Part shown: positions 2,811-37,886 of the stretch, in pieces | How the letters are laid out: each line of letters starts with the position of its first letter | How positions within the stretch are numbered: position 1 is the first letter of the stretch | Sequence record: OZ035738.1 | Source of the DNA: Kagunavirus LM08P2 | Length of the DNA: 42,999 bases | Direction: 5' to 3' (one strand) | Notes under the pieces: generated by a model | The model's input: the letters and a program-made list of their open reading frames with translations, nothing else | Database searches by the model: none | Told to the model about the DNA's origin: nothing | Position numbers and translations under genes: made by a program

Positions 2811-3887
2811 ATGCTATTAACTTTAGCGTCACAGGGTTTATCTATGAGCTTACTTACATCCCTAATCAGCCACCAGATATGGCTGCAACGCGCCGCATCC
2901 GGTGAAGTGAAAGACCTCGCGCCGTTCATTCAGGAAATGCGGGACGAAATCAAACGGCAGGTGCTGTTATTCGGTGACGACGGTCGCAGCACCGAGCGGC
3001 TGAATAAACTGTTACGCGACCTCGAAGAAGCACTGGCAGGGCTTACAGGCGACTGGCAAACAAAGCTGACAGAAGACCTTAAGGAACTGGCGGCGTATGA
3101 GGCTGAGTGGAACGTAAAAACGCTGACGGCTAACGTTAACGCGGAATTTGTTACACCTACCGCTGAGCAGGTGTGGGCCGCTGCTGAGTTTCAACCATTA
3201 TCGTTAAGCGACAAGCCCGTCGATTTCACTAAGCTGATGGATGGCTGGGGTGAAACGGAAGTCGCGCGCCTGGTAACCGGCGTTAAGATGGGCTTTGTCC
3301 AAGGCCAGACGACACGGCAGATTGTTAAGAATGTTGTTGGCGCTGGTGGGCTGGCGGACATCTCCGAGCGTAACGCAGCTACGGTAATCCGCACCGCGCT
3401 GTCGCACGTGTCCAACGAAGCACGTAACGAGACGTACCGTCAGAACGACGACATCATCGAGAAGTACGAGTGGGTGTCAACGCTGGACAGCCGTACCAGT
3501 ACGATTTGCAGAGCCAGGGACGGAATGACGTGGGAAATTGGTAAAGGGCCAATGCCGCCAGCCCATCCGAATTGTCGGTCGTGCACGGCTCCGGTAATCA
3601 GTTCAGAGTTCGACTTCCTCGATAAAGGCGCAAAACGGGCGGCTAAGGGTGCAGATGGCGGTACTCAGGTAAACGCAGACACCACTTATTACGAGTTTCT
3701 GAAACAACAACCGGCGTGGTTTCAGGACCAGGCGCTCGGCCCGGTGCGAGGTAAGATTTTCCGTAACAGCGGTATATCGCCGGAAGAGTTTCGCGTAATA
3801 TCTGTAGATGGTTTCGGGAATCCGCTCACGCTTAAGCAGATGGCGGAACTCGATAAACGTGTTGCTGATTATCTGAAAGGGGATTAA
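2811..3887 (+). CDS. Head morphogenesis protein, Mu F / SPP1 gp7-like
   Basis: 358 aa; C-terminal region LDSRTSTICRARDG...HPNCRSC resembles the conserved Mu-F family core; position after portal. No clear SD; start could be ATG at 2844. Confidence 0.55.
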   Translation: MLLTLASQGLSMSLLTSLISHQIWLQRAASGEVKDLAPFIQEMRDEIKRQVLLFGDDGRSTERLNKLLRDLEEALAGLTGDWQTKLTEDLKELAAYEAEWNVKTLTANVNAEFVTPTAEQVWAAAEFQPLSLSDKPVDFTKLMDGWGETEVARLVTGVKMGFVQGQTTRQIVKNVVGAGGLADISERNAATVIRTALSHVSNEARNETYRQNDDIIEKYEWVSTLDSRTSTICRARDGMTWEIGKGPMPPAHPNCRSCTAPVISSEFDFLDKGAKRAAKGADGGTQVNADTTYYEFLKQQPAWFQDQALGPVRGKIFRNSGISPEEFRVISVDGFGNPLTLKQMAELDKRVADYLKGD

Positions 3888-4348
3888 TGATGGGCTTTTT
3901 CAAAGTAACTGATGTACCTTCACGTCGTGTAGTCCAGTACGCCCGAGTGTCTGGCTCTGGCGAGAACGTGGTATTTATTGAAGACGAAAGTGTACTGGGT
4001 GCGCCAGTGGACGATATGCCGTTTGCAGATAAAACCGGTATTGCGTTACCCGCTGCCGGCATGCTTTACGAGATTCCGTATCTGGCGGACGCTGGTGACG
4101 TGTACTTCTCTGTGCAACCGCAGGACGTTGAACTGGCAGACGGCAGCGCGACTCTCACTGTCGAAGTTAAGGCGGGCAAAGCACCACACGCGCTGACCTG
4201 GTACAAAGACGGTAAGGAAGTGGTAAACGCCCCGGAAGAGGCTTTGTCTCTTACGGTTAACGCGGCAGGCGAATACTTCGTTAAAGTTACTGATGCCGAT
4301 GGAGTAGAGGCCGTGAGTAAAGCGGCGAAGGTTACTAAGCCTGAATGA
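3887..4348 (+). CDS. Ig-like domain protein (possible head decoration)
   Basis: 153 aa; C-terminal LTWYKDGKEV...GEYFVKVTDADG pattern typical of bacterial Ig-like domains; TAATG overlap with upstream gene. Confidence 0.45.
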   Translation: MMGFFKVTDVPSRRVVQYARVSGSGENVVFIEDESVLGAPVDDMPFADKTGIALPAAGMLYEIPYLADAGDVYFSVQPQDVELADGSATLTVEVKAGKAPHALTWYKDGKEVVNAPEEALSLTVNAAGEYFVKVTDADGVEAVSKAAKVTKPE

Positions 4349-4350
4349 TA

Positions 4351-4378
4351 AAAGGCCCCATTACGGGGCCTTAGTTTT
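4351..4378. terminator. Bidirectional intrinsic terminator between convergent genes
   Basis: AAGGCCCC-ATTAC-GGGGCCTT hairpin flanked by A-run upstream and T-run downstream, between + gene ending 4348 and - gene ending 4377. Confidence 0.6.
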
Positions 4379-4622
4379 ATCGCACTCTCATAAATAGCTT
4401 ACCTTTGCGCTGTAACAAATCCATGCCAACTGCACCTTCACCAGATTTGTTCGGACGGCGCATTAAACTAAAGTTCCATACTCTAGCTTTTGAAGCATCT
4501 TTCGCATTGCACACCCAAAGTCTGCCGCTTTCTCTTAGGTCAAATAAGTCCGATATACTGAAATTATTAACCGGTATGAACCCGCTAATGAACTCACGTT
4601 CGCAACTAGGTAATTCCTGCAT
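4377..4622 (-). CDS. Hypothetical protein, opposite-strand insert in head module
   Basis: 81-aa ORF on minus strand with strong SD (GAGGAGGG) upstream of ATG at 4622 and its own promoter at 4649-4677. Confidence 0.5.
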   Translation of the reverse strand: MQELPSCEREFISGFIPVNNFSISDLFDLRESGRLWVCNAKDASKARVWNFSLMRRPNKSGEGAVGMDLLQRKGKLFMRVR

Positions 4623-4648
4623 ACACCCTCCTCGTTTCGATGTAATGA

Positions 4649-4677
4649 ATAGTACCCTATTATATTGGTGTGTGCAA
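4649..4677 (-). promoter_or_regulatory. Sigma70-like promoter, family 2 (TTGCAC-N17-TACTAT)
   Basis: Read on minus strand: TTGCACACACCAATATAATAGGGTACTAT; near-identical copies at 13790-13818(-), 36393-36421(+), 37829-37857(+). Confidence 0.5.
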
Positions 4678-4779: not shown

Positions 4780-4978
4780 AGCTTGTGAAGTATGAACAAG
4801 CGACCGCGGCGCGGGCAGGTAACGGAGCGGGACGTAAGTCCTGAGTGTAGTTACGCTGACGCGTTCGGAAGGGCCATACTCTATTGCTTGTGTAAAAAGT
4901 AACTGGTTTACTGAGATTACGCCGTTTCTATGTTTAAATGATAAGGACTAGCGCCCCGCTTTATGGCGGGGCTTTACT
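4780..4978 (+). ncRNA. Candidate structured noncoding RNA / leader element, copy 1
   Basis: About 110 nt downstream of the promoter is conserved with the copy at 36119-36230; contains hairpins with compensatory differences between copies; no ORF conserved between copies; ends at a GC-rich hairpin plus T-run at 4951-4978. Confidence 0.45.
4951..4978 (+). terminator. Intrinsic terminator
   Basis: GCGCCCCGC-TTTATG-GCGGGGC followed by TTTACTT, immediately upstream of the spanin RBS. Confidence 0.55.
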
Positions 4979-4996: not shown

Positions 4997-5383
4997 ATGA
5001 ATCTTAAAGCAACTGTCGTAGCAGGAGCATGTTTCATCATCCTGTTATACACGCACGGCTACTATCAATACCGCAGCGGCTGGAACGGAGGCAGGGCTAA
5101 TCTAGTTTCGCAGCAACAGCAGAAAGCACAGGCTGAGTTAGCGAAGAAAACACAACGGCAGCAGCAGGACGAATCAAAGGCCGCCGCCGCTGACAACGAA
5201 GGCAAGACGAAATCAGAGGTGATTACCCGTGAAGTCGTTAAGTACATTAAAACGCCTGGCCGCAGCGTGTGCACTTTCGACGATGCTCGCGTCCTGCTCA
5301 AGTCCCGCGCCGTCGCAAACGCCAATTCCATCCCCGGATACGACGATGATGCAGCCGCCATGCAAACTGGCCGCGCCAAGTAG
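4997..5383 (+). CDS. i-spanin (Rz-like inner membrane spanin)
   Basis: 128 aa; N-terminal hydrophobic TMD (ATVVAGACFIILLY) then Q/A/K/E-rich predicted coiled coil; overlapped by a lipoprotein ORF in another frame; strong SD AAAGGAGAAA. Confidence 0.55.
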   Translation: MNLKATVVAGACFIILLYTHGYYQYRSGWNGGRANLVSQQQQKAQAELAKKTQRQQQDESKAAAADNEGKTKSEVITREVVKYIKTPGRSVCTFDDARVLLKSRAVANANSIPGYDDDAAAMQTGRAK

Positions 5384-5492
5384 CGATGCCGATGAGGATT
5401 TAGCCATTGACGTTCAGAACACAGAATGTGTACGGCAACTGCGTCTGAAAGTGTTCATGTTGCAGGATTACGTGAGGAATATTCTGGAATAG
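5229..5492 (+). CDS. o-spanin (Rz1-like outer membrane lipoprotein)
   Basis: 87 aa from GTG start with SD GAGGTGA; signal peptide ending in lipobox LASC; proline-rich mature region; begins inside the i-spanin gene in the +1 frame and extends past its stop. Confidence 0.55.
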   Translation: MKSLSTLKRLAAACALSTMLASCSSPAPSQTPIPSPDTTMMQPPCKLAAPSSDADEDLAIDVQNTECVRQLRLKVFMLQDYVRNILE

Positions 5493-5526
5493 TTGCCTTG
5501 CATGTTGGAATAATTTATTCTTGACA
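5475..5526. promoter_or_regulatory. TGGAATA repeat cluster and promoter-like region upstream of scaffold/capsid genes
   Basis: GAATATTC palindrome 5477-5484, TGGAATA at 5485-5491 and 5506-5512, TTGACA at 5521-5526; shares TGTTGGAATAA...TATTC...TTGAC with 4720-4749. Confidence 0.35.
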
Positions 5527-5574
5527 TGTAAATCCGGGTGGCCCGGGTTCCAACGTCCAGGGGACATACTGACT

Positions 5575-6276
5575 ATGAATCGTTTTTTACGTTATCCGTT
5601 CCAGGAAGAAGCTGGGGCAGAAGATAAAGCTGGTGGCGGTGACGCGCCGAAAATGTTCACCGCTGAAGAAGTTCAGGCGCTGATTGAGAAAGAAGTTGCC
5701 GGGCTTAAGGCCAATCAGGAAGCATTGCTGGCGGAGAAGAAAGAAGCCGCTCGTAAAGCAAAAGAGGCCGAAGAAGAACGGCAGCGCGCGCACCAGGAGG
5801 CGTTAAAAGCCGCTGGTAAGATGGACGAGTTCGAAAAGACGATTCGTAGCCAGTATGACCCGGTGTTAGCCGAGAAAGATGGTCGCATCTCCAAAATGGC
5901 AGAGCGTATCCTCGGCAGTGAACGTAAAGCGGTGTTAGGCTCTTTCGCGGGCGACTTTATTACCCCGGAAGCAGTAGACATTCTTGCTCCGTTCGTTAAG
6001 ACTGAGTTCGAAGGCGATGACGTGGTTACTAAGTTTGTTGGTGCGGATGGCAACGTAATCACGACTGACCCGGAACAGTTCCGCAAATACCTGCGTGAAC
6101 ACAAAGCATTTTCGCATTTGATTAAAGCAAATGCAGCTTCCGGCGGCGGGGCTTCCGGTAGCAAAGGCGGCGGGGCCGCACCAGCGTTTAAAGACATGAG
6201 TGAAGCGGAGCGTTTAGCTCTGTATAAATCGAACCCTGCCGAATTTGAACGGCAACTTAAAGCCCTGAGGAAATAA
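5575..6276 (+). CDS. Scaffolding protein (putative)
   Basis: ORF track start 5521 is TTG; first ATG at 5575. Ala/Glu/Lys-rich, predicted coiled coil (EKKEAARKAKEAEEERQRAHQEALKAAGK), immediately upstream of major capsid gene. Confidence 0.5.
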   Translation: MNRFLRYPFQEEAGAEDKAGGGDAPKMFTAEEVQALIEKEVAGLKANQEALLAEKKEAARKAKEAEEERQRAHQEALKAAGKMDEFEKTIRSQYDPVLAEKDGRISKMAERILGSERKAVLGSFAGDFITPEAVDILAPFVKTEFEGDDVVTKFVGADGNVITTDPEQFRKYLREHKAFSHLIKANAASGGGASGSKGGGAAPAFKDMSEAERLALYKSNPAEFERQLKALRK

Positions 6277-10153: not shown

Positions 10154-10566
10154 TGGGCTACTTTGAGGACTTAACCAAAGCGTTCGATGTGCCGCTGGTA
10201 GCCTTCGGAACCGCCAACGGCATCAAGGTTGCGCTTGAAAACATCGACGCGCCGACATCAACCGATACGCCGTATCTGGCGAGTTACATGTTGCTGGCGG
10301 ATACGGAACAGGCTGATTTGTTCTTCACGGAACAACGCGCCGGTGTTTATCAGGTCGACATTAACTACGCATCGGTGAAAGGTAGCGCGCCAATCAATAA
10401 AATGGCAGACTTACTTAACACGGCGTTTAAAGCAGGTAAGTCATTTTCACGTAACGACATCTGCGCCGAGGTTCAATCGGTAAGCCTGGGGCCGCTGATT
10501 GTAGAAAACGGATGGGCCAAAAGACCATTGTCAATTAACTTTATTGCATTCACCAAGAGGCTGTGA
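10150..10566 (+). CDS. Hypothetical tail completion protein
   Basis: 138-aa ORF overlapping neighbours, between neck and major tail genes. Confidence 0.4.
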   Translation: MMGYFEDLTKAFDVPLVAFGTANGIKVALENIDAPTSTDTPYLASYMLLADTEQADLFFTEQRAGVYQVDINYASVKGSAPINKMADLLNTAFKAGKSFSRNDICAEVQSVSLGPLIVENGWAKRPLSINFIAFTKRL

Positions 10567-10568
10567 AT

Positions 10569-11735
10569 ATGGCTACAACTCCTTTTAAGGGCGCGAATAC
10601 CGCGCAATTCTATGTGGCGGAAGTCACCCCGGGCGTAACACCGACTAACCCGGTATGGTCGCCGTTGCGTAACACAGGTGGCGTTCCCGCTATCACCCGC
10701 GACACGCTGACATCCAACGAACTGGACGGCAGCCGTGAAACTACATCCATCCGCACCGGTAACAAACAGGTTAGCGGTGAATACGCGATCGAGCTTAGCT
10801 CTAAAAGCCAGGACGACTGGCTGGCGGGCGCTTTAGGTTCCACGTGGCAATCAGGTGTCTCTCTGTCAGGGCTGTCGATTACCGTCGCGCCTGCAGGTAA
10901 GACATTTACACGCTCCACCGGTAGCTTTATTTCTGACGGCGTTGAAGTAGGCGACCTGATTGCGTTTACCGACTTAACCGGCGACAACGCAAAACCATTT
11001 ATCGTCACTGCGGTAGAGGCACTGGTAGTGACCGGTGCAGGCATCCAGCACACTCTCACCACAGAGACCGCTACTACTGCTGCTAAGACAGGCGACAAAC
11101 TGGAAACCGGTAGCCAGTGTAAGACGTTCTCTATTCTCACCTGGTACAAAGGCCAGTGCGGCGGGACTGACGCATACACGTTAACCAAAGGCGTGGAAGT
11201 TTCTGGTTTTACCGTTGAGCAGGCCGTTAACGCGATGGTAACGGGCAGCTTCCCGTTCATCGGGCGCAGCCAGGAGATTCTCACTACGCCACCGTCTGGT
11301 TCTGACTTCTCCTCTGTTACGTTTGGTGACGAGCCGTTCTCCTCGGTCGACGTTTCCGTGTTCGATGGCTCTACGCCGTTGCGTTGCGACAGCCTGACCA
11401 TCACCAACGATAACAGCGCGTCCGCACAGTTCGAACTCGGCAACTCTAACGTTGCGTTTGTGGAGCGTAGCCGCGCGGCTAACACCTTCTCCATCTCAGG
11501 CAAGCTGTATGACATGGCTATGATTCAGAAGTTTATCAACGAGCAGCAGGTAGAGATTAACTCTATTCTGGCGGGGGTAAACGGAGCTATGTCTTTCAGC
11601 CTGAAACGCGCAGAGCTCACGGCGGTTACACCAGAAATATCCGGCCCGGAATCAATTACCCAAAGTATAGAAGGGCAGTCCACAGGCAACCAATACCAGT
11701 CGTCTATCGTAATTCAACGTATTAGTTACGCATAA
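10569..11735 (+). CDS. Major tail protein (putative)
   Basis: ORF track start 10563 is GTG; ATG at 10569 with SD AAGAGG; about 390 aa; followed by strong terminator; precedes chaperones and tape measure. Confidence 0.5.
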   Translation: MATTPFKGANTAQFYVAEVTPGVTPTNPVWSPLRNTGGVPAITRDTLTSNELDGSRETTSIRTGNKQVSGEYAIELSSKSQDDWLAGALGSTWQSGVSLSGLSITVAPAGKTFTRSTGSFISDGVEVGDLIAFTDLTGDNAKPFIVTAVEALVVTGAGIQHTLTTETATTAAKTGDKLETGSQCKTFSILTWYKGQCGGTDAYTLTKGVEVSGFTVEQAVNAMVTGSFPFIGRSQEILTTPPSGSDFSSVTFGDEPFSSVDVSVFDGSTPLRCDSLTITNDNSASAQFELGNSNVAFVERSRAANTFSISGKLYDMAMIQKFINEQQVEINSILAGVNGAMSFSLKRAELTAVTPEISGPESITQSIEGQSTGNQYQSSIVIQRISYA

Positions 11736-11737
11736 AA

Positions 11738-11768
11738 CTAAGGCCCCTTTCGGGGCCTTTTTCTTACT
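11738..11768. terminator. Bidirectional intrinsic terminator
   Basis: AAGGCCCC-TTTC-GGGGCCTTTTTCTT with A-rich 5' flank; sits between + major tail gene and - cassette. Confidence 0.7.
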
Positions 11769-11994
11769 CATCAATATTGCTTCGGTATTCCCGTAACTTC
11801 TCCAGACTTTCAATTGCTTCCGCTAAGTCGGTTCCGGTGTCCTTGTGTCCGCGCAAGCCCATGCACAATAGCTTCTTCAATGCGTGCTGTAGCGCCGGGT
11901 CGCGTATATCGAAGGCGCGGAGCACATCATAAACGTCTACTGTCATAGTGCTGCCGTGAGTGTTTGTCATTGTGCGGTTGTATTTTGAAGTCAT
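11764..11994 (-). CDS. Hypothetical protein (76 aa)
   Basis: Last gene of minus-strand cassette; ATGA overlap with upstream gene. Confidence 0.45.
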   Translation of the reverse strand: MTSKYNRTMTNTHGSTMTVDVYDVLRAFDIRDPALQHALKKLLCMGLRGHKDTGTDLAEAIESLEKLREYRSNIDE

Positions 11995-12242
11995 AAATGG
12001 CTCTCATCTATAAGAACGATAACTGCCGAAATCGAAACGGCACCTACATATAAAAGACGCATCTCGGTCGGCGCTATAGCGGTAACAGCTTCGTACAGGC
12101 CCGAGAACACGGACAAATCCATAGAGATAAATGTTAAGACCGCCGCCATTCCTAGTACCGCGGTGGATAAAACCAGTAAAACCAGTAAAACCAGTAAAAC
12201 CACAACAGGCATTATGGCGAAAATCCACAAGGCTTTAATCAT
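11991..12242 (-). CDS. Small membrane protein with VLL repeat
   Basis: 83 aa, two hydrophobic segments; N-terminal (VLL)n tract encoded by a 9-bp tandem repeat; ATGA overlap with upstream gene. Confidence 0.5.
   Translation of the reverse strand: MIKALWIFAIMPVVVLLVLLVLLVLSTAVLGMAAVLTFISMDLSVFSGLYEAVTAIAPTEMRLLYVGAVSISAVIVLIDESHL
12173..12199. repeat. 9-bp tandem repeat CCAGTAAAA x3 perfect (plus partial flanking copies)
   Basis: Read directly; in frame within the 11991-12242 gene, encoding repeated Val-Leu-Leu. Confidence 0.85.
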
Positions 12243-13369
12243 CCCAGCATCTCCGGTGAAATAGTTAAACGTGCGACCTCGCCATATTCGGCGCTATAAG
12301 TAATTACATTTGCGCTACGACCCGACATCCAGCCGCCTCTGGAGGCGTAGGCGTCTTTAGCCGCTAAGGTTCGATGTTGCTCGACAACCATGTTACGGCT
12401 TTCTACAATCTTTTGATGGTGCAGGTGGCCTACGTGGGCGTAGCTGTAAACACTCTCGCCGAACGCTTTGCGGAACTTAGCTATCATAATTGGTTCGATA
12501 GCGTCGAAGCGTGCTTTATGTCCGTGGTGAAAGAACAGCGTCGTTTTGCCGTGTTGGACCATCTTGTAAACATCCGGCGACGTATCGACGAACACACGCG
12601 GCTCATTGTCGTACAGCGTACTGAACATCTCAGCTAACCAAATCATTCCGCTCTCGTCGTGGTTCCCTTGCACAATAAGCAAGCGAACATTTTTATGTTT
12701 AACCAGCGCCATATCGATAACACGGCGGACCATACGAATCATGTAGCGGACCAGTTTCTGATAGCGCGTGTCAGCGTCAAGAACATGACCACTCGCCGGT
12801 GTAACCGCATCCAGACTATCAAAGTGTGCGAAGTCCCCCAGCAGGTTAATAACTCCTGTTCCTGCATCTGGTGCTTTCTGAAACGCAGCATCGAACCACC
12901 GAGAGAACAGGTCTTCCGCAATCTTCATGTCCCAGTCGTCGCCGCTCTCGTCGGCCCAGGCAAGCATACCGAGATGGAAATCAGATACCGTGTAAAGATT
13001 GAGTAGCTTGTCGTCGCGTTTGGCTCGAGTCGCTTTAGCCGGCGCAACTGGCGTAATCTCTGACTTCATGCCTTCAATCACGGCTTTCATCAACTCGACC
13101 TGACGTTCAGCGTCGGTGTCTGTCTTAACCCATTGCAACTTAGTATTGCCGAACTCGTCTACCAGAGACGACGTCCCTTTAATCTTGTAGCCGTCTGGGA
13201 CAAGGTGGCTAACGTCGCGCCCGTGGCCCACGCCTTTCTTAGCCAGCTTCGCTTTACGGATACGAATAACGCGGTCTGAGATGCCGTATTTACGGGCTAT
13301 ATCGATATTCTTCATTCCGGCGTTCAATTCTTCCTGTAACTGTTCGTCGGTTATTTTCTTCCGGGCCAT
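12239..13369 (-). CDS. HTH-fused calcineurin-like metallophosphoesterase (SbcD/Mre11- or CpdA-like fold)
   Basis: Motifs in order DFHLG, GDFAHFD, GNHD, HHGH, GHLHH match the metallophosphoesterase signature; N-terminal ITDEQLQEELNAGMKNIDIARKYGISDRVI looks like a helix-turn-helix; likely start ATG 13369 with SD GAGGAAG (track start 13420 lacks an SD). Confidence 0.6.
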   Translation of the reverse strand: MARKKITDEQLQEELNAGMKNIDIARKYGISDRVIRIRKAKLAKKGVGHGRDVSHLVPDGYKIKGTSSLVDEFGNTKLQWVKTDTDAERQVELMKAVIEGMKSEITPVAPAKATRAKRDDKLLNLYTVSDFHLGMLAWADESGDDWDMKIAEDLFSRWFDAAFQKAPDAGTGVINLLGDFAHFDSLDAVTPASGHVLDADTRYQKLVRYMIRMVRRVIDMALVKHKNVRLLIVQGNHDESGMIWLAEMFSTLYDNEPRVFVDTSPDVYKMVQHGKTTLFFHHGHKARFDAIEPIMIAKFRKAFGESVYSYAHVGHLHHQKIVESRNMVVEQHRTLAAKDAYASRGGWMSGRSANVITYSAEYGEVARLTISPEMLG

Positions 13370-13434
13370 GCTTACTTCCTCGTGTTTAGGATTTGTCCTA
13401 TTTAACCACAGTGCATTCATTTAAATAAAGGCGA

Positions 13435-13761
13435 CTATTTACTTTCCACGCCTATCGCCCACCCAGTCATTACCATTTGCAGACGGGTAGCTGTTAGTAG
13501 GCTGTAGAACGCGTCCCCGTTTTTCTCTACTGAACGTATCACCGTGTATGTTACGGCTTGCGGGGGTAGACCCGATTTACCAACCTCTACGGCGGCCTCA
13601 CACTCACGAACTGTAGAGTCCTTGAATGCCTTTACAATAGTAGGGTCAGCTTTCTTAAGCACGCCAGAAGTCATAAGAACAGATTCGCTAAATACCTGTT
13701 CGCACGGAGATCCAAAAGTAGCAAAAGACATAAACCCCAGAGCTAATACTAATTTACGCAT
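13435..13761 (-). CDS. Secreted/periplasmic small protein
   Basis: 108 aa; N-terminal signal-peptide-like MRKLVLALGFMSFATFGS; SD GAGGA; first gene downstream of promoter 13790-13818. Confidence 0.5.
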   Translation of the reverse strand: MRKLVLALGFMSFATFGSPCEQVFSESVLMTSGVLKKADPTIVKAFKDSTVRECEAAVEVGKSGLPPQAVTYTVIRSVEKNGDAFYSLLTATRLQMVMTGWAIGVESK

Positions 13762-13789
13762 AATTATTTCCTCAGTAAGTTACAAGTGA

Positions 13790-13818
13790 ATAGTACCCTA
13801 TTATATTGGGGTGTGCAA
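13790..13818 (-). promoter_or_regulatory. Sigma70-like promoter, family 2
   Basis: On minus strand TTGCACACCCCAATATAATAGGGTACTAT; drives the 13761-to-11764 cassette. Confidence 0.5.
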
Positions 13819-13925
13819 GTAGTGTGCTAGAATAAGTTTGCGCCTAGTGTCGCACACGAAAAGCGGGTGGTTCCCGTCTGGCGCGTCAACCTTAACCTGT
13901 AACCTCTTAACCAAAGGATTAAAGA

Positions 13926-14342
13926 ATGAAACTTTCTGATTTTTATTTTGCGGACCGCCACGCTGCTGGCACTAAAATGCCTATCCTTCTGCCGAGTGGT
14001 AAAGACTCCGGTGAATGGTTGCAGGTCATTGGCCCAGATTGTGATGCTGGTGTTCGTGCAGGCCGCGCCTACACAACGGCAATTCGACGCCTTACGGAAG
14101 AACTTGCACCATTAGATAAAGAGTGCGAGGCGCTGAATAACTGGGCGCGCTATAACGATGAGAAGGGCTGGCGGGTTATGGACCTGAACAAGCAGCTCGC
14201 CGTGGAAATCGTCACCGGTTGGTCATTCGACGAACCGTTCAGCAAAGAGGCGCTGGCTAACCTGTTTGACCAGTACAGTGGGCTGGCAGAGGCCGTAGTT
14301 AAGCACCATACGGATAGCCGTGAGAAACTCTCGGAAAAGTAA
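13926..14342 (+). CDS. Tail assembly chaperone (putative)
   Basis: 138-aa ORF immediately upstream of tape measure gene with SD AAGGA; followed by a -1-frame ORF. Confidence 0.5.
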   Translation: MKLSDFYFADRHAAGTKMPILLPSGKDSGEWLQVIGPDCDAGVRAGRAYTTAIRRLTEELAPLDKECEALNNWARYNDEKGWRVMDLNKQLAVEIVTGWSFDEPFSKEALANLFDQYSGLAEAVVKHHTDSREKLSEK

Positions 14343-23802: not shown

Positions 23803-23805
23803 AAC

Positions 23806-23832
23806 TAAGGCCCCATTTGGGGCCTTTTCTCT
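23806..23832. terminator. Bidirectional intrinsic terminator
   Basis: AAGGCCCC-ATTT-GGGGCCTTTTCTCT with A-run upstream; between convergent modules. Confidence 0.7.
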
Positions 23833-26548: not shown

Positions 26549-26863
26549 TTATAATTCCTTATATTGTTGGGGTATGTGCTTACTATAATAGTCTGCTATT
26601 AGGGTGTCAATCTGTTTTATCGAACCAACGACAAAAACATTCGCGCCACGTTTACGCATCCGCTCGTGCTCGCGTAACTGGTGTGGGTCTGGCTTCGTGC
26701 TTTCATCTTTCTTAACCTCAACGAACCAGATGATGCCGCCGGGGAGGATTACCAACAGGTCGGGCGCTCCGTTTCGGCCCTCATACACTATCTTACGAAC
26801 GAGGCCCCCCAGGGCCTCGAATCGGTCTTTCGCGTATTTCTGTACGCGGCCCTCTTTAGTCAT
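26549..26863 (-). CDS. VRR-NUC domain nuclease
   Basis: PD-(D/E)XK-like core GAPDLLVILPGGIIWFVEVKK; start uncertain (ATG 26863 or TTG 26878). Confidence 0.55.
   Translation of the reverse strand: MTKEGRVQKYAKDRFEALGGLVRKIVYEGRNGAPDLLVILPGGIIWFVEVKKDESTKPDPHQLREHERMRKRGANVFVVGSIKQIDTLIADYYSKHIPQQYKEL
26582..26610 (-). promoter_or_regulatory. Sigma70-like promoter, family 1 (TTGACA-N17-TATAGT)
   Basis: On minus strand TTGACACCCTAATAGCAGACTATTATAGT; lies inside the 3' end of the VRR-NUC gene. Confidence 0.5.
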
Positions 26864-29504: not shown

Positions 29505-29532
29505 GTAAAAAGGCCCAATGAAGGGCCTTAGT
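29505..29532 (-). terminator. Intrinsic terminator (minus strand)
   Basis: On minus strand AAGGCCC-TTCATT-GGGCCTTTTTACT, downstream of SSB-like gene. Confidence 0.55.
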
Positions 29533-30178: not shown

Positions 30179-30245
30179 CTTGATTTCTCGCTTTTCAGTT
30201 TATATTTCAAAGTTTACTCCGGGAGCTGCCCGGCCAGTGATTAGA

Positions 30246-30274
30246 ACTATAATAGCTAACTATTCAGGTGTCAA
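30246..30274 (-). promoter_or_regulatory. Sigma70-like promoter, family 1
   Basis: On minus strand TTGACACCTGAATAGTTAGCTATTATAGT upstream of SSB-like gene. Confidence 0.5.
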
Positions 30275-32836: not shown

Positions 32837-32867
32837 TTGTTTCTCTCCTCTCGTTTGGTATGGGCTA

Positions 32868-32897
32868 ACTATAATAGCGAACTATTCATGTTGTCAA
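32868..32897 (-). promoter_or_regulatory. Sigma70-like promoter, family 1
   Basis: On minus strand TTGACAACATGAATAGTTCGCTATTATAGT (18-bp spacer). Confidence 0.5.
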
Positions 32898-32961
32898 TGG
32901 GCTTTCCTAAAATAATTAATATGGTACTATTCACATATAAACTGACTAAGGAGTAATTGAC

Positions 32962-36118: not shown

Positions 36119-36353
36119 AGCTTGTGAGATATCGCAAGCGACCGCGGAGCGGCAGGGAACGCAACGCGTGCCATTAGGCACTTGAGTGTAGTTCCGCTGG
36201 CGCTTTCGGAAGGGCCAAAGTCTATTGTTAATCCCGCCTAAATACCCAAGTCACTGATAATTAAAAGTTTCTATAGTTGCCGTAAGCAAGGTGGAGAGTA
36301 CTTCACTCCGCTGGGGTGGGCTAACGCCCACCCACTGCGTTGCGTACTCTTTT
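36119..36353 (+). ncRNA. Candidate structured noncoding RNA / leader element, copy 2
   Basis: Conserved with 4780-4886 over about 110 nt; no ORF; GC-rich hairpin GGGTGGGC-TAAC-GCCCACCC at 36313-36333 enclosed by GAGAGTAC/GTACTCT and followed by TTTT. Confidence 0.45.
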
Positions 36354-36392
36354 AAGAAACGAAAGAATCACAACGGCAACGTAACTTTTCTC

Positions 36393-36421
36393 TTGCACAC
36401 ACCAACATAATAGGATACTAT
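36393..36421 (+). promoter_or_regulatory. Sigma70-like promoter, family 2
   Basis: TTGCACACACCAACATAATAGGATACTAT upstream of 36456 gene. Confidence 0.5.
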
Positions 36422-36455
36422 TCACTTATAGAAACGAGACAGAGGAGTGAGGGTT

Positions 36456-37821: not shown

Positions 37822-37828
37822 AATTTAC

Positions 37829-37857
37829 TTGCACACACAGATATAATAGACTACTAT
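37829..37857 (+). promoter_or_regulatory. Sigma70-like promoter, family 2
   Basis: TTGCACACACAGATATAATAGACTACTAT upstream of 37887 gene. Confidence 0.5.
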
Positions 37858-37886
37858 TCAGTTATCGAAACGAGAGGAGAGAGAAG

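Follow-up and report, generated by a model that had tools for sequence, protein, structure and literature searches.

What does a metallophosphoesterase tethered to a helix-turn-helix (HTH) domain act on in a bacteriophage, and when is it made if its gene runs against the tail genes on either side? The question is raised by a leftward gene at positions 12239-13369 of Kagunavirus LM08P2, a Kagunavirus-type siphophage of the Guernseyvirinae, whose deposited sequence (OZ035738.1, 42,999 nucleotides) is called the window below. A preliminary description had proposed a phosphoesterase with an N-terminal HTH, undecided between an SbcD/Mre11-type nuclease and a cyclic-nucleotide phosphodiesterase. Here we find that the gene is a further member of a catalogued, widespread phage family, and we lean, with somewhat more than an even chance, towards a DNA nuclease, Mn-dependent and tethered through its HTH, that would be expressed in the early/middle class and would break down or process DNA in connection with the supply of nucleotides.

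The minus-strand open reading frame (ORF) encodes a protein of 376 amino acids (aa), followed by a stop codon at 12239-12241. The longest frame on this strand spans 12239-13420 (393 aa); its start at 13420 was dropped and the ATG at 13369 preferred because a ribosome-binding site precedes the latter, which is also the start annotated in relatives. The coordinates of the preliminary description therefore stand.

12239-13369, minus strand: coding sequence of the HTH-metallophosphoesterase, supported by the ORF list, the ribosome-binding site and start, a full-length match to PHROG 704 (expectation value, E, 2.7e-167) and homologs 97-98% identical
13375-13380, minus strand: ribosome-binding site AGGAAG, 5 nucleotides (nt) upstream of the ATG at 13369, read from the sequence

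The DNA of the region is ~92% identical to that of Kagunavirus LM08P1, the BASEL phages Bas70-76 and K1G-like phages. Relatives share ~91-93% identity in DNA and 97-98% in protein, which points to purifying selection on a real gene; for these phages the gene is an ordinary, conserved one and no oddity of LM08P2.

The match to PHROG 704 extends over aa 4-375 against profile positions 2-389 of 390. The family's label, 'DNA repair exonuclease', is an annotation, and the names given by depositors conflict, ranging over DNA repair exonuclease, metallophosphoesterase, phosphatase, DNA polymerase II small subunit, transcriptional regulator and winged-HTH protein. Of 50,697 phage records, 2,050 gave a tblastn match to the protein, and in 1,958 of these the match took in the N-terminus and covered at least 80% of the query. 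Our first homolog search gave near-identical proteins only, and diversity was drawn from a protein library clustered at 50%, which holds 4,669 representatives (E <= 0.001). Carriers include Guernseyvirinae, Dhillonvirus, Drexlerviridae and Jedunavirus, Erwinia phage Era103, and phages of Vibrio and Aeromonas; phage T1 has a full-length ortholog in gp16 (ST16; 45% identity across 377 aa, E 3e-115). The joining of a phosphoesterase to a DNA-binding-like N-terminus, which had been called unusual, is instead the standard architecture of PHROG 704, as the coverage across these records and the T1 ortholog attest. A 2026 pangenome of the Drexlerviridae reports the gene as persistent and finds a module of exonuclease, holin, endolysin and spanin in 508 of 522 genomes (PMC13164509). 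Our literature search for functional work on the family returned genome-description papers only, with no experiment on any member, and neither a phage transposon-sequencing (Tn-seq) preprint nor the HIDEN-SEQ preprint mentions the gene.

We then examined the domain architecture using an AlphaFold2 model built on 103 diverse homologs (mean predicted local distance difference test score, pLDDT, 92.7; predicted template modelling score, pTM, 0.80) and a conservation alignment of 103 diverse family representatives, each 33-50% identical to the query. The domains and motif codons are placed as follows.

13235-13369, minus strand: N-terminal HTH of LuxR/GerE/sigma-region-4 type (aa 1-45), then a flexible linker (aa 46-60), from the model and profile matches
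13058-13189, minus strand: basic module of a beta-hairpin and a helix (aa 61-104); the model places strands at aa 61-70 and 76-85, then the helix over aa 87-104
12242-13015, minus strand: metallophosphoesterase core (aa 119-376, reaching the C-terminus), from motifs and model
12974-12982, minus strand: motif I, D130-F-H132
12818-12838, minus strand: motif II, G178-D179-F-A-H182-F-D184, that is, GDxxH followed by xD
12656-12667, minus strand: motif III, G235-N236-H237-D238
12518-12529, minus strand: motif IV, H281-H282-G283-H284
12419-12430, minus strand: motif V, G314-H315-L-H317

The HTH is modelled with helices at aa 8-16, 21-28 and 32-44, and is joined to the rest of the protein by a low-confidence linker at approximately aa 45-58 (low pLDDT at aa 51-54). 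The query itself gives weak GerE and FixJ matches, the Pfam GerE match lying below threshold, and other family members match the HTH families Sigma70_r4_2 (1.5e-9), GerE (2.4e-8) and HTH_8 of Fis type (2.6e-7). Kagunavirus, Dhillonvirus and T1-like proteins have in common the pattern KIT.EQL..E...G.....IA.KYG...R.V..R.A.LAK.G. The two N-terminal segments are basic, with isoelectric points of 10.1 for aa 1-60 and 9.5 for aa 61-118, against a mildly acidic 6.2 for the catalytic core, and the HTH diverges faster than the core (mean pairwise identity 24% versus 40%). Homologs from Campylobacter and Flavobacterium phages have no HTH, their alignment beginning at aa 65-76. The hairpin module, in which G74 and W80 are near-invariant, is part of the conserved core as judged from these alignments, being kept even where the HTH is missing.

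The core carries the complete five-motif signature of the calcineurin-like metallophosphoesterase superfamily, DxH, GDxx(D/H), GNH(D/E), H and GHxH. D130, H132, G178, D179, N236, H237, H282, G314 and H317 are invariant in the 103 representatives and H182, D184, D238, H284 and H315 are at least 90% conserved, and such constancy across divergent members indicates that an enzyme activity is under selection. The query misses the gathering thresholds of the Pfam models Metallophos (22.0 versus 27 bits) and Metallophos_2 (18.7 versus 21.5); even at E <= 0.01 these models match only 27 and 16 of the 103 members, and the family appears too divergent for them. The model has the beta-sandwich metallophosphoesterase fold, and its active-site scaffold superimposes on known metallophosphoesterases, so that the structural ground for refutation named in the preliminary description does not apply. 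The proposal of a metallophosphoesterase with an N-terminal HTH is thus borne out by the conserved motifs, the model helices, the Pfam matches and the basic isoelectric point. The catalytic signature as first described was right for DxH, GNHD and GHxH and needs correction at motif II, which reads GDxxH, as in Mre11, and not GDxxD.

To which phosphoesterases is the protein most alike? Foldseek barely separated Mre11, Rv0805 and DP1, with E values of ~4e-8 to 6e-8. Structural comparison gave values of 13.7 for LpxH, 13.5 for MJ0936, ~13.3 for further Mre11/SbcD structures and 12.5 for GpdQ, and lower ones for Rv0805 (11.9), the Pseudomonas putida nuclease MPE (9.5) and PP1/PP5 (~9). The structural preference for nucleases that the model suggests is real but moderate. 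Searches of the PDB by sequence, with both the single protein and the family profile, returned nothing significant, and the similarity expected of a member of the P. putida MPE nuclease clade was not seen. An NCBIfam scan gave no usable matches and none of the PADLOC defence models matched at E <= 1. The fold search of BFVD returned mostly unnamed or uncharacterised phage homologs, and T5 A1, T4 gp47 and lambda phosphatase were not ranked by it. A phmmer match to the STIV B204 ATPase (E 0.1) was taken as chance.

The likeness to Mre11/SbcD is clearest in motif II, where GDF(A/L)H, with H182 conserved in at least 90% of representatives, aligns with GDLLH of Thermotoga maritima Mre11. H182 is the equivalent of His52 of Pyrococcus furiosus Mre11, a residue needed for exonuclease activity. 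Mre11/SbcD has a C-terminal capping domain and Rad50-binding helices, whereas in the model the LM08P2 protein ends with the catalytic core and bears an N-terminal HTH in place of the Rad50-binding parts. We found no Rad50/SbcC/SMC-like ATPase by PHROG scan among ten large ORFs of the replication and early/lysis regions, which instead matched helicase, methyltransferase, polymerase, single-stranded DNA-binding protein (SSB), exonuclease, helicase-primase and resolvase families. Nor does a Rad50/SbcC-like gene stand beside the homologs in the T1-like, Dhillonvirus, Jedunavirus, Vibrio and Kagunavirus neighbourhoods examined. Orthology with Mre11/SbcD was rejected on these grounds (no capping or Rad50-binding region, no Rad50/SbcC gene among the ORFs scanned or in the neighbourhoods examined, and a profile E of 0.14).

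The small subunit DP1 of archaeal PolD, a 3'-5' proofreading exonuclease, resembles the protein in structure at a sequence identity of 12%. DP1 is a polymerase subunit, whereas the LM08P2 polymerase matches general phage DNA-polymerase PHROGs, with no PolD partner identified; T1-like phages carry the ortholog, and T1 has no annotated polymerase gene.

The class III cyclic-nucleotide phosphodiesterases CpdA and Rv0805 share the superfamily, its signature and the metal-binding motifs with the LM08P2 protein, and Rv0805 is among the top Foldseek matches (E 4.3e-8). The protein could by this likeness be a counter-defence enzyme that destroys the signals of CBASS, Pycsar or type III CRISPR systems, a function that would suit an accessory-looking island, which in one relative holds a superinfection-immunity gene. 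CpdA/Rv0805 did not come out as the closest metallophosphoesterase when structure and sequence were considered together, Rv0805 ranking lower in the structural comparison, and the presence of a DNA-binding domain also argues against this function. SECphi18 (Dhillonvirus) and SECphi27 (Warwickvirus), whose full-length homologs show 74% and 47% identity, were included in a published screen that set infected-cell lysates of 57 phages against 11 cyclic nucleotide signals in 1 mM MnCl2; its text credits degradation solely to T-even and SBSphiJ-family phages. Taken together, the indirect evidence of the screen text, the lower rank of Rv0805 and the DNA-binding domain make degradation of cyclic nucleotides very unlikely, and the anti-CBASS/anti-Pycsar role raised in the preliminary description is disfavoured. 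We give still less weight, next to none, to a protein Ser/Thr/Tyr phosphatase resembling lambda phosphatase (NinI) and acting on host or phage phosphoproteins: the superfamily is shared, and phosphatases of PPP type are indeed known from lambda and other phages, but the PPP signatures GDxHG, GDxVDRG and GNHE are missing from the sequence.

The position of the gene differs from that in T1-like phages, and this is the sole respect in which T1 gp16, alike in family and full-length architecture, departs from it. In T1-like phages the gene closes a helicase/methylase operon just ahead of the lysis cassette, whereas in LM08P2 it lies in a leftward island (11764-13761), flanked on one side by the rightward tail-tube gene (10563-11735, Pfam Phage_tube_2) and on the other by the gene for the tail-assembly chaperone (13926-14342). 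Upstream of the island stands a promoter-like element with an embedded palindrome, AATAG-N4-CTATT, of which the genome holds seven sites against 0.09 expected, the expectation being that of the broader N3-6 pattern.

4646-4677, minus strand: extended-form site
13781-13819, minus strand: island promoter/operator of 39 nt, TTGCAC-N17-TACTAT with embedded TATAAT and the palindrome AATAGGGTACTATT, from repeat families and site alignment
26581-26608: site in the replication module
30245-30272: site in the replication module
32867-32894: site in the replication module
36392-36439, plus strand: extended-form site
37828-37875, plus strand: extended-form site

Four sites share the extended motif TTGCACAC.CCAA.ATAATAG..TACTATTCA...GAAACGAG, followed by a ribosome-binding site (none expected), and lie upstream of the island, of an 81-aa ORF at 4377-4622 and of two rightward early-gene clusters at ~36.4 and ~37.8 kb. 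The other three, within the leftward replication module, carry the palindrome in the spacer of a promoter of the form TTGACA-N17-TATAGT. Bas76, G AB-2017 and fTaEco01 have kept the element ahead of their islands. A weaker copy is found at 32918-32931. As read from the DNA, the seven elements look like an early/middle promoter-operator set of the phage, and we infer that the gene is part of the early/replication regulon rather than of the late structural set around it. The shared promoter class suggests that the protein would be made with DNA-metabolism genes, not with tail genes.

It is tempting to ask whether the HTH itself reads these elements. The protein could be a bifunctional regulator whose HTH binds AATAG-N4-CTATT in the seven early-type promoters, its own included, while the phosphoesterase performs a separate reaction; it would then autoregulate, shut off early transcription, and form a one-chain counterpart of A1 and A2 of phage T5, of which A1 is described as needed for pre-early gene shutoff and as interacting with RNA polymerase. 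The excess of the palindrome, always in promoter-like elements and once directly upstream of the island, is in line with such a regulator, as are an HTH type typical of transcription factors, a weak match to a PHROG of late transcriptional activators and the label of transcriptional regulator that one depositor gave an ortholog. However, the palindrome is missing from SECphi18 and T1, both of which carry orthologs with a similar HTH framework, and Kagunaviruses encode at least two other small HTH proteins, a 60-aa Xis-like protein and a 71-aa regulator. The gene of the regulator adjoins a palindrome-like site, so that it would be the more conventional protein to bind the operator. The invariant catalytic residues moreover mark the enzyme, and not just the HTH, as the selected function, and T5 A2 shows no similarity to the HTH. 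We regard such a regulator as doubtful, with a small but appreciable chance. The palindrome as target of the HTH was considered and is not supported, given the two palindrome-free ortholog carriers and the other small HTH proteins of the phage.

Further indications of function come from the genes that follow the phosphoesterase, where the downstream slot is a cargo-exchange site with conserved flanks, namely the 3' end of the phosphoesterase gene and a terminator (11764-12242, compared with 5128-6167 of fTaEco01). The rest of the LM08P2 island consists of the following.

13435-13761, minus strand: first island gene, 108 aa, PHROG 14165 (function unknown), with a hydrophobic N-terminus that looks signal-peptide-like by eye
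11991-12242, minus strand: 83-aa hydrophobic ORF overlapping the phosphoesterase stop (ATGA), a rare, variable cargo with a 9-nt tandem repeat
11764-11994, minus strand: 76-aa ORF, last gene of the island, whose DNA is found in 321 phage records
11740-11759, both strands: bidirectional intrinsic terminator AAGGCCCC-N4-GGGGCCTT closing the tail-tube gene and the island, conserved in fTaEco01

In 57 phage records, mostly K1G-type Kagunaviruses, the slot holds a HAD phosphatase and a P-loop kinase. The phosphatase is homologous to the 3'-phosphatase domain of Pnkp (Pnkp1 E 1.7e-6, T4 Pnk E 1.8e-4 in the PDB), and the kinase is annotated by depositors as a deoxynucleoside monophosphate (dNMP) kinase. 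Polynucleotide kinase and dNMP kinase are likewise the commonest genes right after the ortholog in the Drexlerviridae (PMC13164509). The recurrence of kinase and phosphatase neighbours in unrelated lineages ties the enzyme to nucleic-acid and nucleotide chemistry.

Such neighbours also suit an end-healing enzyme, that is, a 2',3'-cyclic phosphodiesterase or 3'-phosphatase that works with Pnkp-type partners to repair RNA or DNA ends, for example those of tRNA cut by host anticodon nucleases, in analogy to the metallophosphoesterase module of bacterial Pnkp. In Kagunavirus and Drexlerviridae, genes for polynucleotide kinase/phosphatase repeatedly adjoin the phosphoesterase gene. A T4-like Pnk is encoded by T1 as well, and metallophosphoesterase modules with 2',3'-cyclic phosphodiesterase activity are known from Clostridium thermocellum Pnkp and lambda phosphatase (PMC2190708). 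We consider end healing improbable as the function of the family.

The nuclease that we favour would be a stand-alone phosphodiesterase with a binuclear metal centre, probably of Mn2+, that acts on DNA through a domain resembling Mre11 and DP1, and that would be held on DNA by the flexibly linked LuxR-type HTH and the basic hairpin module. It would be transcribed leftward from its own promoter, of the class found at early and replication operons, and its job would most likely be DNA cutting or resection during infection, either to break down host DNA for nucleotide salvage or to process ends for replication or recombination. In related phages the neighbouring polynucleotide kinase/3'-phosphatase and dNMP kinase would turn the cleavage products into usable nucleotides. 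From the biochemistry of T4 Pnk, 3'-phosphorylated products could pass from Np to pNp to pN, and then to the deoxynucleoside diphosphate (dNDP) by dNMP kinase.

Several points weigh against this nuclease. Both DNA as the substrate and the early/middle timing are deduced, the timing from promoter similarity. In profile searches, the T. maritima Mre11/SbcD structure (E 0.14) and the nuclease MPE (PDB 6NVO, E 0.59) both fell short of significance, and profile alignment probabilities of 25-52% leave a link to T5 A1 unproven. The LM08P2 slot is filled by the 83-aa and 76-aa ORFs, without kinase or phosphatase neighbours. Finally, the phage has a further exonuclease, besides an SSB/annealing protein and a Holliday-junction resolvase, and a role in recombination could therefore be redundant. 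On the choice posed at the outset, a nuclease is better supported than a cyclic-nucleotide enzyme by the GDxxH motif, the basic modules, the invariant catalytic residues, the promoter class, the neighbours and, by analogy, T5 A1 and mycobacteriophage gp48, but not as an ortholog of SbcD/Mre11; the initial caution that sequence alone is no proof of substrate still holds.

The remaining DNA of the island and related elements elsewhere in the window show further features. The stretch 11764-12238 is covered to at least 80% in two phage records only. Within the 83-aa ORF, a perfect 9-nt tandem repeat, TAAAACCAG, is present in 3.9 copies at 12168-12202 and encodes VLLVLLVLLVL; in Kagunavirus LM08P1, otherwise identical, this stretch appears to lack 18 nt (two repeat units), so that the copy number seems variable. 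The 76-aa ORF matches positions 150-220 of the 235 of PHROG 2452, as well as the C-terminal part of several ATPase-annotated PHROGs, and could be either what remains of a longer protein or the C-terminal domain of one standing alone. In some Kagunaviruses (fTaEco01, 3772-3963) a superinfection-immunity gene of Imm type comes first in the island in place of the 108-aa gene, indicating that the upstream slot is variable too. Near-identical GC-rich hairpins of the form AAGGCCCC-N4-GGGGCCTT, with A/T runs on both sides, are found at 4351-4376, 11740-11759, 23805-23824 and 29508-29530, and these hairpins at transcription-unit boundaries look like reused bidirectional intrinsic terminators. The 81-aa ORF (MQELPSCEREF...) forms a second leftward island, of a single gene (4377-4622, minus strand), within the rightward structural module; it has an extended-form promoter to itself (4646-4677) and ends at a terminator near 4345-4385. 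A 45-nt direct repeat, TGAGTGTAGTT.CGCTG.CGC.TTCGGAAGGGCCA..., occurs at 4842-4886 and 36183-36227, 31 kb apart and 89% identical, both copies lying in intergenic-looking DNA near extended-form promoters.

The family is among the commoner uncharacterised enzymes of virulent enterobacterial siphophages, with a presence in ~4% of deposited phage genomes, including many phage-therapy candidates against Escherichia coli K1, Salmonella and Klebsiella. If it is a DNA-dismantling or DNA-processing nuclease, it would help to explain how these phages acquire nucleotides and take over the host, and it would bear on which of them trigger defences that sense DNA-breakdown products; the sensors of N6-methyl-deoxyadenosine monophosphate (m6-dAMP) Metis and PUA-Cal-HAD restrict the T1-like phage Bas12. 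Such a nuclease would also affect the generalized-transduction risk of therapeutic phages, which depends on the survival of host DNA through infection. The family is of modest interest and a reasonable target for a first characterisation.

Among known systems, the closest functional parallels may be two phage metallophosphoesterases. A1 of phage T5, a predicted metallophosphatase, is reported to be necessary and sufficient for degradation of the host chromosome and works alongside the DNA-binding protein A2 (bioRxiv 10.64898/2026.04.02.716235). Like the LM08P2 protein, A1 is a stand-alone phage metallophosphoesterase with Mre11 and DP1 as structural neighbours, and the two share ExNHDxxxSxWL around motif III, the HGH of motif IV and an ITY near the C-terminus. 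They differ in that A1 has 556 aa with a long unrelated N-terminal region, and in that the DNA-binding function belongs to a separate protein, A2, in T5 and to a fused domain in LM08P2. BLASTP against A1 and A2 found nothing, hhalign detected no similarity between A2 and the HTH, and the top 50 BFVD matches, many of them without a name, included no recognisable A1. Using hhalign, we aligned the 103-member family with an alignment of 8 A1 homologs and obtained probabilities of 25.6% at full length and 52% for the catalytic domains (E 1.4e-4 to 7e-4), with ~28 confident columns around motif III and a greedy alignment collinear through all motifs. We therefore speak of an analogy to T5 A1 and of a possible distant kinship, not of membership. 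The T5-like Vibrio phage D232 has a polynucleotide kinase gene directly downstream of A1 (stretch positions 271-1920 and 2000 onward), and in T5 the 5'-dNMP phosphatase Dmp (stretch positions 124-858) lies near A1; this company of nucleotide-metabolism genes parallels the neighbours of the PHROG 704 family.

It is tempting to speculate further that the HTH shuts off early genes through the seven operators while the Mre11-like domain destroys host DNA, which would make the protein a single-chain counterpart of A1 and A2. The Pnkp-type phosphatase/kinase and dNMP kinase of some relatives would then recycle 3'-phosphorylated products, from Np through pNp and pN to ppN. We think this unlikely, a little more so than the regulator with a separate phosphoesterase reaction; if true across the more than 2,000 phages, it would amount to a widespread and unrecognised host-takeover module in T1-like, Dhillonvirus and Guernseyvirinae phages. 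A second functional analogue of the LM08P2 protein is gp48 of mycobacteriophage A10ZJ24, a cluster A metallophosphoesterase. Five motifs, phosphodiesterase activity and early expression are reported for gp48, as well as disruption of host genomic DNA and a counter-defence action (PMC12287305). This likeness is drawn from the published description, in the available part of which an HTH fusion is not described for gp48, whereas in the LM08P2 protein the HTH and the phosphoesterase are joined in a single chain.

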